From Octopus sinensis (Eukaryota), in NCBI RefSeq assembly GCF_006345805.1, contig NC_042997.1:130324001-130388000 (forward strand): a DNA stretch of 64,000 nt, written 5' to 3'. Under the pieces are notes generated by a model. The model had not been told where the DNA came from and did no database searches. It was given only the letters and a program-made list of their open reading frames with translations. Below are positions 58,872 to 59,900 of the stretch, piece by piece. The position numbers were made by a program, and so were the translations under genes. Position 1 is the first letter of the stretch. Every line of letters starts with the position of its first letter.

Positions 58872-59193
58872 TGCAGGAGTGGCTGTGTGGTAAGTAGCTT
58901 ACCAACCACATGGTTCCGAATTCAGTCCCACTGCGTAACACCTTGGGCAAGTGTTTTCTACTATAGCCTTGGGCCGACCAAAGCCTTATGAATGGATTTG
59001 GTAGATGGAAACTGAAGAAGCCCATTGTATATATGTATATATAATATGATAAATATAAGAGAGTGGTCACTATATTGCTCACTCTAGCACCAGTTAATCC
59101 AAAAGGTTTCAACCACGAAAATACATGTTTCCCATGAAAGCCAGTACGACTGTTAGCTCACACGGACAGGGCAAATAAAAAATAACAAAAATA

Positions 59194-59288
59194 CAGATTA
59201 TTTTGGGACAATTGTTTCGCTATTAATGAATTAAATGTAATATTACTTACAAAAAATCCATTTGTAGCTCGTCAGCCAAGACTATCTG
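59194..59288 (-). ncRNA. Type I hammerhead ribozyme motif
   Basis: Minus strand: stem I CAGAUAGUCUUGG/CCAAAAUAAUCUG, core CUGACGA, stem II GCUA/UAGC, GAAA, short palindromic stem III (ACAAUUGU) and a GUC cleavage triplet. Confidence 0.8.
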
Positions 59289-59900
59289 GATGAAATCCAC
59301 TCAATCACATGCCAGATTTTACCATAACGATAAATACGCGTGTGGTTCAATTGATTACATCCGACGTTATAATTCAAATGCCCCAACTAACAGCGCGCCA
59401 AACTTTCACGGAAAACAAATACAGCATTTAGAAATAAATGCAGCATAATTATAATTAATTAATAAGGGTGAGAGAATTAGATACTAATTTAATAGTATAT
59501 TTATTCAACACCAAGTGGCCTAGTGCTACGAGAAACCTGGATTATTATAATATTTTATAACATATTATAATATTTTTACAAAATAAATATAAGAGAGTGG
59601 TCACTATATTGCTCACTCTTAATTGATAAACGAGTACATTATATCATTATAAAAAACCATTTTCTTCAGAGGAATACATGAACCATACAATTATGGACAT
59701 TTAAGAAACATTTAAAATCCACAGCATGTGGACACATGTGGGAAGTGGGTATTTAAGATTTATAGTCTTGAAGGGGGTTAGTTGATATATATATATCAAT
59801 ACATATGCATATATATGTATGTATATACATAGATGTGCTTGTATATATATATATTCTTTTACTTTTTTTTTACTTATTTCAATCATTTGACTGTGGTCAT

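Follow-up and report, generated by a model that had tools for sequence, protein, structure and literature searches.

The window, i.e. the whole analysed stretch of 64,000 nucleotides from Octopus sinensis, carries on its minus strand a copy of a non-coding unit of 534 nt (GC 32%), here named family A. The longest open reading frame within this unit has 52 aa, in agreement with the preliminary description, which had seen no meaningful ORF there. Positions in the unit are given as q, defined as 59620 minus the window position, with q1 at 59619 and the numbering running along the hammerhead strand. The copy and its surroundings comprise the following features (PLE, Penelope-like element; pLTR, terminal repeat of a PLE):

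58347..58760, no strand assigned: neighbouring pLTR piece of family B, a Hydra-clade PLE, inserted head-to-head; it carries an apparently homologous hammerhead and shows the same two-ended geometry
58870..59048 (approximately), plus strand: flank, high-copy putative SINE with a TA-rich tail, landing site of the 3' end of the unit
59042..59053, plus strand: candidate left copy of a target duplication, 11-12 bp, recognised by eye and 1 base longer than the right copy
59049..59619, minus strand: insertion of family A with a single arm, covering 571 nt or 1.07 periods of the 534-bp unit
59049..59085, minus strand: 3' copy of the 37-bp repeat, ending at the fixed 3' end site A (q37-40) and preceded by a small hairpin
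59194..59288, minus strand: type I hammerhead with core and three stems, its activity being predicted
59450..59579, minus strand: 130-nt "tail" from site A to site B (q164-170, about 59450), internal in this copy
59583..59619, minus strand: 5' copy of the 37-bp repeat at the 5' truncation point; internal unit sequence and no target-site duplication (TSD)
59620..59630, plus strand: candidate right copy of the target duplication, recognised by eye
59620..59730, minus strand: flank outside the unit, an older hammerhead-bearing repeat (family C), about 85% identical to other copies

The window copy (L082) spans q1 to q37 of the next period and differs in 2 positions from the majority of the sampled family A units. 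Its direct repeat had been described as 35 bp long at 59051 and 59585 with a period of 534 bp. Repeat and period are real, but the two identical copies (59049-59085 and 59583-59619, spacing 534) start at 59049 and 59583 and are 37 bp long. That the repeat bounds the element could not be upheld: the same 37 bp are internal to every array unit elsewhere, and the 5' end is a truncation. The arm stopped 37 nt past one period and therefore the terminal repeat is a by-product of this truncation. The window copy is a 5'-truncated 1.07-mer with a single A arm and one predicted ribozyme and, because there is only one, it is unable to release a unit-length RNA by two cuts. By itself it is an unremarkable, dead-end truncated monomer.

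To the left the unit adjoins a TA tract, as had been observed before, and the segment in front of it we take to be a SINE from its copy depth and appearance, with no library match. It had the highest contig depth of the comparison, the depths not being taken as copy numbers. The candidate target duplication (11-12 bp with one indel) overlaps on the left with the last 5 bases of the element, and its size fits the duplications at other family A loci. In the contigs of 6 different runs, none of the joints listed skips the unit, as an empty allele would. At the 5' junction of the unit the family C repeat, which is absent from the preliminary description, is broken inside its loop II, and its 3' half is missing there. 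The family B neighbour shows an internal duplication of 65 bp, AAAA instead of GAAA in the hammerhead core of both arms, and a tail of about 100 nt in one arm and not in the other. Within 1.4 kb there are three hammerhead elements and one SINE, which fits a shared TA-rich target.

The hammerhead had been announced as a complete type I motif of the minus strand with the core CUGACGA and a predicted cut between 59207 and 59206, and exactly such a motif is present there. Stem I is formed by 59288-59276 with 59206-59194 and pairs in 11 of its 13 positions, in line with the imperfect 13-bp stem reported before. It is followed by the core at 59275-59269, by stem II (GCUA/UAGC), which closes a structured loop of 42 nt, by GAA and by the palindrome ACAAUUGU of stem III at 59215-59208, next to C17 at 59207 (q413). 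Enlarged loop II and palindromic stem III had been recognised correctly; only the attribute "minimal" does not suit a motif with a stem III and an enlarged stem and loop II. A descriptor search gave a single match in the 64-kb window, namely this hammerhead, and none in each of 60 dinucleotide shuffles. The Rfam hammerhead models, put forward earlier as a check, gave no match at the gathering threshold, nor at E<=10 across 58300-59800, probably because loop II comprises 42 nt.

Across about 160-170 unit pieces of family A the core is nearly invariant, and the common variant C340U mends a mismatch of stem I. The sequence of stem I differs yet pairs in families A, B, C, D, E, F and H, stems I and II covary, and the ACAAUUGU stem III is common to most of seven related families. 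In some units of families D and F (L296, L326) the core CUGANGA is changed to CCGAUGA, or stem II has a U-U pair at its base, and with these changes the activity may differ among sister families.

In folding calculations the monomer hammerhead reached -18.7 kcal/mol compared to -24.3 kcal/mol for a fold that buries the core, i.e. the latter is predicted to be better by 5.6 kcal/mol. For the double hammerhead -48.6 kcal/mol was calculated, compared to -37.4 for two monomer hammerheads and -52.4 for the best two-strand fold. Since the monomer favours the core-burying fold and the double hammerhead folds better than two monomer hammerheads (by 11 kcal/mol), cleavage in multimers and a stable monomer circle are predicted. 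The dimer dependence suggested at the outset thus stands as a prediction. Cleavage in multimers and stability of the monomer circle are ascribed to dimeric hammerheads in the relevant passages of PMC4209133, and the 2026 preprint (bioRxiv 2026.07.22.740005) mentions that 8 of 9 predicted frog retrozyme dimers were uncleaved in vitro, which, together with the better core-burying and two-strand folds, counts against the reading preferred below. Folded in silico as a circle, the unit had a z of -7.0 compared with 40 shuffles (antisense strand -5.2, sister family D -7.7).

Searching the own genome for other copies, as had been proposed, yielded 228 unit matches in 40 scored of 953 candidates, and the full-length ones are 97-100% identical. 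An exact 23-mer of the core gave 537 matches and a degenerate 24-mer 1,298 (controls 0); as these counts of hammerhead-core matches are lower bounds, at least 1,298 units exist. Most unit words are also present in public contig sets under four organism labels. Family A is young, non-coding and found mostly as head-to-head tandem arrays in (TA)n. Its early assignment to a retrozyme-type family with many tandem copies is borne out by multi-unit arrays of the 534-bp unit, as is the suggested origin from multimeric or circular RNA, the many-unit arrays fitting either template. The sister non-coding family D has a period of about 525 nt, is identical in 341 of 534 positions, collinear over the whole unit and has the same two ends; family F is a second non-coding sister. 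A LINE fragment carrying a tail of short repeats interrupts the stem III palindrome of one family D hammerhead (L296, G000:C21:6486550-6489701; also L295). Whole insertions with identical junctions recur nearby in L061/L062, L134, L210/L223 and L283-L307 (contig C27) and represent segmental or tandem duplications, with more than 10 copies of one family D insertion on C27.

The geometry of insertion was followed in 83 regions (40 from the first search, 25 with all new loci among the first 100 listed 23-mer matches, 17 from the 24-mer list and 1 found by accident). They contain 85 insertions, 62 of them two-armed (head-to-head) and 23 single-armed. With the exception of six, all arm ends fall into q30-52 (site A, mostly q37-40) or q148-176 (site B, mostly q164-170), two sites 130 nt apart, and enter AT-rich, mostly (TA)n flanks. 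Two-armed insertions combine A with B in 57 cases and never A with A or B with B; the remaining five join B with another end (three with arms of 28-33 bp, one against unrelated sequence and one like an A end over-extended into TA). Single arms end at A (10, the window copy being an A arm), at B (12) or elsewhere (1). Two pairs being duplicates, 55 A+B cases are independent, and free choice would give them with a probability of 0.5^55. A+B also holds for the longest array, L159/L160 with about 20 or more units, which stands outside this count because it spans two regions. Pairing of A with B implies that the two target ends use different start sites.

At the other side the 5' ends of 143 arms are scattered over the whole unit; 71 ends showed no significant clustering around stem I or the terminal hairpin (p about 0.15). 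"Monomer plus overlap", proposed earlier for the window copy, is thus not supported as a meaningful form: its 3' end is a fixed end, but its 5' end is one of many. Of the 60 head-to-head junctions, 18 are joined bluntly, 28 share 1-3 nt, 3 share 6-9 nt and 11 contain inserted bases. At about ten loci whose TA flanks are imperfect, candidate target duplications of about 8-15 bp were recognised by eye, most flanks being uninformative. No upstream extension common to the arms was seen in the 85 insertions; the arms begin inside the unit, at the junction with the other arm or in flanking DNA that is unrelated or rich in TA. Within the 130-nt tail a hairpin (about 59527-59505) is kept in the sister families.

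How many templates contribute to one insertion was read from haplotypes in a first set of 39 loci (one duplicate dropped) with 126 unit pieces of at least 400 nt. Substitutions per unit amount to 1.22 within the same arm, 1.38 between opposite arms and 6.34 between loci, a pattern reached by none of 1,000 permutations. The 39 loci show 18 stepwise related haplotypes, which are fixed across arrays of up to about 11 units. At four loci every covering unit of both arms has an allele that is absent from the other 38 of 39; of these four "private" alleles one (q215) recurs in loci of the second set. Mosaicism is seen in 12 of 124 locus-by-allele cells, mostly in single units, and the arrays L161 and L162 (second set, read from the allele table) and L054 are also mosaic.

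The predicted cut site is crossed by arms 278 times, and none of the 143 5' ends lies within q411-417, where 1.9 would be expected by chance. This lack of ends is weak evidence, since uncleaved linear RNA fits equally. In 165 of 172 unit pieces q408-418 is identical, the rest showing one substitution and length slips in short C/A runs. From the crossings, the lack of starts and this near-identity it follows that a cleaved linear monomer joined by template jumps is unlikely, the arms passing the site without scars. Circle and uncleaved multimer both fit the cut-site data, but with a circle alone a new monomer variant would give rise to multimers again with no additional process. We consider a circular template probable. 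Internal jumps end at q413 in one of 5 cases (L053) and one contig joint lies at q415, which is indistinguishable from chance. The jump in L053 (4686-4739) leads from q413, the predicted cleavage nucleotide, to q470-473 with a microhomology of 3 nt; it is a single case and not significant.

With respect to the mobilising enzyme the family B neighbour (58347-58760) is informative. At other loci this family continues into an ORF with the motifs CxCx5C, CxxC and CxH, which are given as marks of Hydra-clade PLEs in the corresponding part of PMC8557442. The genome contains 19,183 first-look candidates for Hydra-type ORFs, some with open frames of more than 750 aa. In Hydra terminal repeats the hammerhead likewise has an enlarged loop, often with the ACAAUUGU stem III, and 3' ends occur at two points separated by about 100-130 nt. 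Aligned to family B, hammerhead A reaches a score of 56, compared to 26-28 for three other hammerhead families and 24.8 +/- 3.7 for shuffled sequences, in which the common core is destroyed too. Judged by sequence likeness, it is homologous to the hammerheads of Hydra-clade PLEs in this genome. Between the tail of family A and Hydra tails the similarity does not exceed that of shuffled sequences (z -1.5 to 1.1). Linkage to Penelope ORFs, another early suggestion, did not emerge: no ORF-bearing element with family A ends was found among 120 loci (50 GIY-YIG loci, 50 Hydra loci and 20 solitary tail-motif loci), and the sampled loci contained for family A no ORF with RT and GIY-YIG between pLTRs, i.e. 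no autonomous PLE. Among matches with a named animal source, a PLE protein of this genome is best matched by one from Argonauta hians. We regard it as very probable that family A is a non-autonomous retrozyme mobilised by a PLE. The Hydra clade is the likely source of this enzyme, as a candidate class whose exact family was not found among the loci examined.

A young Neptune-like PLE (L208-L212, L223) with intact frames of 780-781 aa, in two copies together with an overlapping upstream frame of 479 aa, lies less than 2 kb from the family A arrays L045, L081 and L210/L223. Its long repetitive 3' region contains no hammerhead by descriptor. As a partner of family A it was rejected, having no shared ends and a 3' region without match to the unit.

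On balance we favour the view that a Hydra-clade PLE spreads the young, non-coding retrozyme family A in trans and primes from both strands of the target, with a circular monomer as the probable template, and we hold this account as a whole to be moderately probable. Multi-unit arrays would be transcribed, and neighbouring hammerheads would pair via their palindromic stem III and cut. The monomer might then be closed by ligation to form a circle with strong self-pairing. In (TA)n a PLE protein, probably dimeric, would make a staggered cut of about 8-15 bp. From there site A would serve as the start for one DNA end and site B, 130 nt downstream, for the other, a pattern present in the genome for which the chemistry is presumed. 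Both arms would run up to many units past the cut site and stop at scattered points, and would be joined head-to-head, bluntly or via 1-3 nt of microhomology, both patterns again being visible in the arrays. Of the window copy only the A arm would remain; its end after 571 nt left the 37-bp terminal repeat. A bolder version, which we put forward tentatively and with slightly more doubt than trust, sees in each insertion the record of one RNA circle: a dimeric Hydra PLE would start at two points 130 nt apart, one per strand, and roll round the same circle, and the circle lineage (families A, D and F) would have been kept as whole units while diverging to about 64% identity. If true, this would answer how animal retrozymes move, and the one-sided tail and 5' inversion of PLEs would amount to obligatory twin priming.

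The same two-site priming by a PLE could also have used an uncleaved linear multimer, with arrays lengthened by template jumps or local duplication and a ribozyme dispensable for mobility. Such a route has precedents, since according to the experiments described in PMC11167929 the PLE PAc uses unprocessed RNA for insertion and mutation of the ribozyme leaves insertion in vitro normal, and local amplification is the model outlined in the 2026 preprint (bioRxiv 2026.07.22.740005). The mosaic arrays L161, L162 and L054 and the array of about 20 or more units in L159/L160 can be read in this way. On the other hand, 18 haplotypes in 39 loci, fixed array-wide, would need a repeated monomer bottleneck with re-expansion, the cut site shows no jump scars (165 of 172 pieces identical at q408-418), and the ribozyme core is nearly invariant, its stems covarying across sister families. 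We consider the linear multimer rather unlikely, though more probable than the other rivals.

It is highly improbable that the unit is the pLTR of an autonomous PLE, with ORF-bearing copies outside the sample and the arrays being stacked pLTRs. The neighbouring family B is exactly such a pLTR, and only 85 insertions were examined compared to at least 1,298 units; but these 85 share no upstream extension, family D is collinear across the whole period, and the PLE ORFs near L045, L081 and L210 belong to the Neptune-like family, the 3' region of which does not match the unit. This mismatch also speaks against mobilisation of the retrozyme by a non-Hydra element (Neptune-like PLE, Naiad or LINE), to which we assign a very small probability even though intact 781-aa frames of a young Neptune-like PLE occur less than 2 kb from three arrays and the tail likeness to Hydra is not significant. 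A shared (TA)n targeting can explain this proximity, the hammerhead plan and the two-ended geometry match Hydra repeats, and a one-sided tail is described for PLEs and not for LINE target-primed reverse transcription (TPRT) in the respective section of PMC8557442. An ordinary TSD around an insert of 497 bp, which the preliminary description had named as a refutation of its reading, would account for two identical copies flanking the unit. It can practically be dismissed, since the same 37 bp are internal to every unit at other loci and the apparent duplications at informative loci consist of about 8-15 bp of local AT-rich DNA. The retrozyme moved by a Hydra-clade PLE, probably via a circle, thus remains the preferred reading.

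Compared with known systems, family A is a non-LTR retrozyme on every sequence criterion with a clear result. With metazoan non-LTR retrozymes, as presented in the main parts of PMC7229834 and the 2026 preprint, it has in common non-coding tandem units of low GC content with one type I hammerhead each, monomers to long multimers, a predicted self-paired circle and, as proposed in those texts, a PLE mobiliser and a circular template. It differs in unit length (534 nt, above the 150-450 nt of PMC7229834 but within the 51-972 of the 2026 preprint) and, from the retrozymes described in these sources, in the 42-nt loop II and in escaping Rfam. In the terms used in the preprint the window copy alone, with its one ribozyme, is a "monomer". 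For the origin of such elements Cervera and de la Pena 2020 (PMC7229834) propose, in the part concerned, reverse transcription on circles with PLEs as candidate mobilisers, while Li, Clavereau and Pollet 2026 (bioRxiv 10.64898/2026.07.22.740005) propose a pLTR origin and local amplification. Head-to-head arms with two exclusive fixed ends and array-wide haplotypes were not found in the searched text of either, nor were octopus data in that of the preprint. No publication on octopus retrozymes or on retrozyme arrays with two ends turned up in the open literature, and the words hammerhead, ribozyme and retrozyme are absent from the main text of an Octopus vulgaris repeat annotation (PMC13282606).

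The minimal or dimeric hammerheads of PLEs discussed in PMC4209133 are similar in their short palindromic stem III and in being predicted to act as dimers. In contrast with the minimal type, family A has a stem III (2 bp and a 4-nt loop), a long stem I and an extended stem II. Endonuclease-positive (EN+) PLEs, which form partial tandems with an inverted 5' copy as described in the relevant parts of PMC8557442, PMC3846280 and PMC11167929, share with family A the head-to-head arrangement, the one-sided tail, AT or (TA)n targets and a hammerhead in the repeat. A tail at one end only is regarded there as a PLE hallmark (PMC8557442), and target duplications of 8-10 bp (PMC3846280) are similar in size to the candidates of about 8-15 bp recognised here by eye. 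For PAc, the only system studied in vitro, the tail is reported to be the stretch between two RT start sites, both strands being nicked and extended, and the protein is predicted to dimerise (PMC11167929). The start site of PAc is, in that account, the same for both strands, whereas family A shows strict A+B pairing. Further differences from the published EN+ PLEs are the lack of an ORF, a tail of 130 nt compared to 30-40 nt in print, arms that are both multimers of one unit, and a near-absolute A+B rule (57 of 57 classifiable two-armed insertions). Hydra-clade PLEs are close as well: the proteins of families B/E have the Hydra motifs of PMC8557442, (TA)n is the target of both and their hammerheads resemble that of family A. 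The hammerhead published there for Hydra-1_Obim has a loop II of 9 nt, whereas families A and B/E have enlarged loops, and family A is non-autonomous.

PLE-driven mobility of animal retrozymes via circular RNA has so far been proposed in print from co-occurrence and sequence likeness. Family A offers a countable footprint: its two starts are fixed and exclusive, each insertion has a single haplotype, and the same genome contains a candidate enzyme class whose open frames are long. With a defined template of 534 nt and two predicted start sites the question becomes testable in vitro; it also touches on how the tail and the inversion of PLEs arise, which is unsolved. Family A is an unusually clean record of PLE-driven retrozyme insertion.
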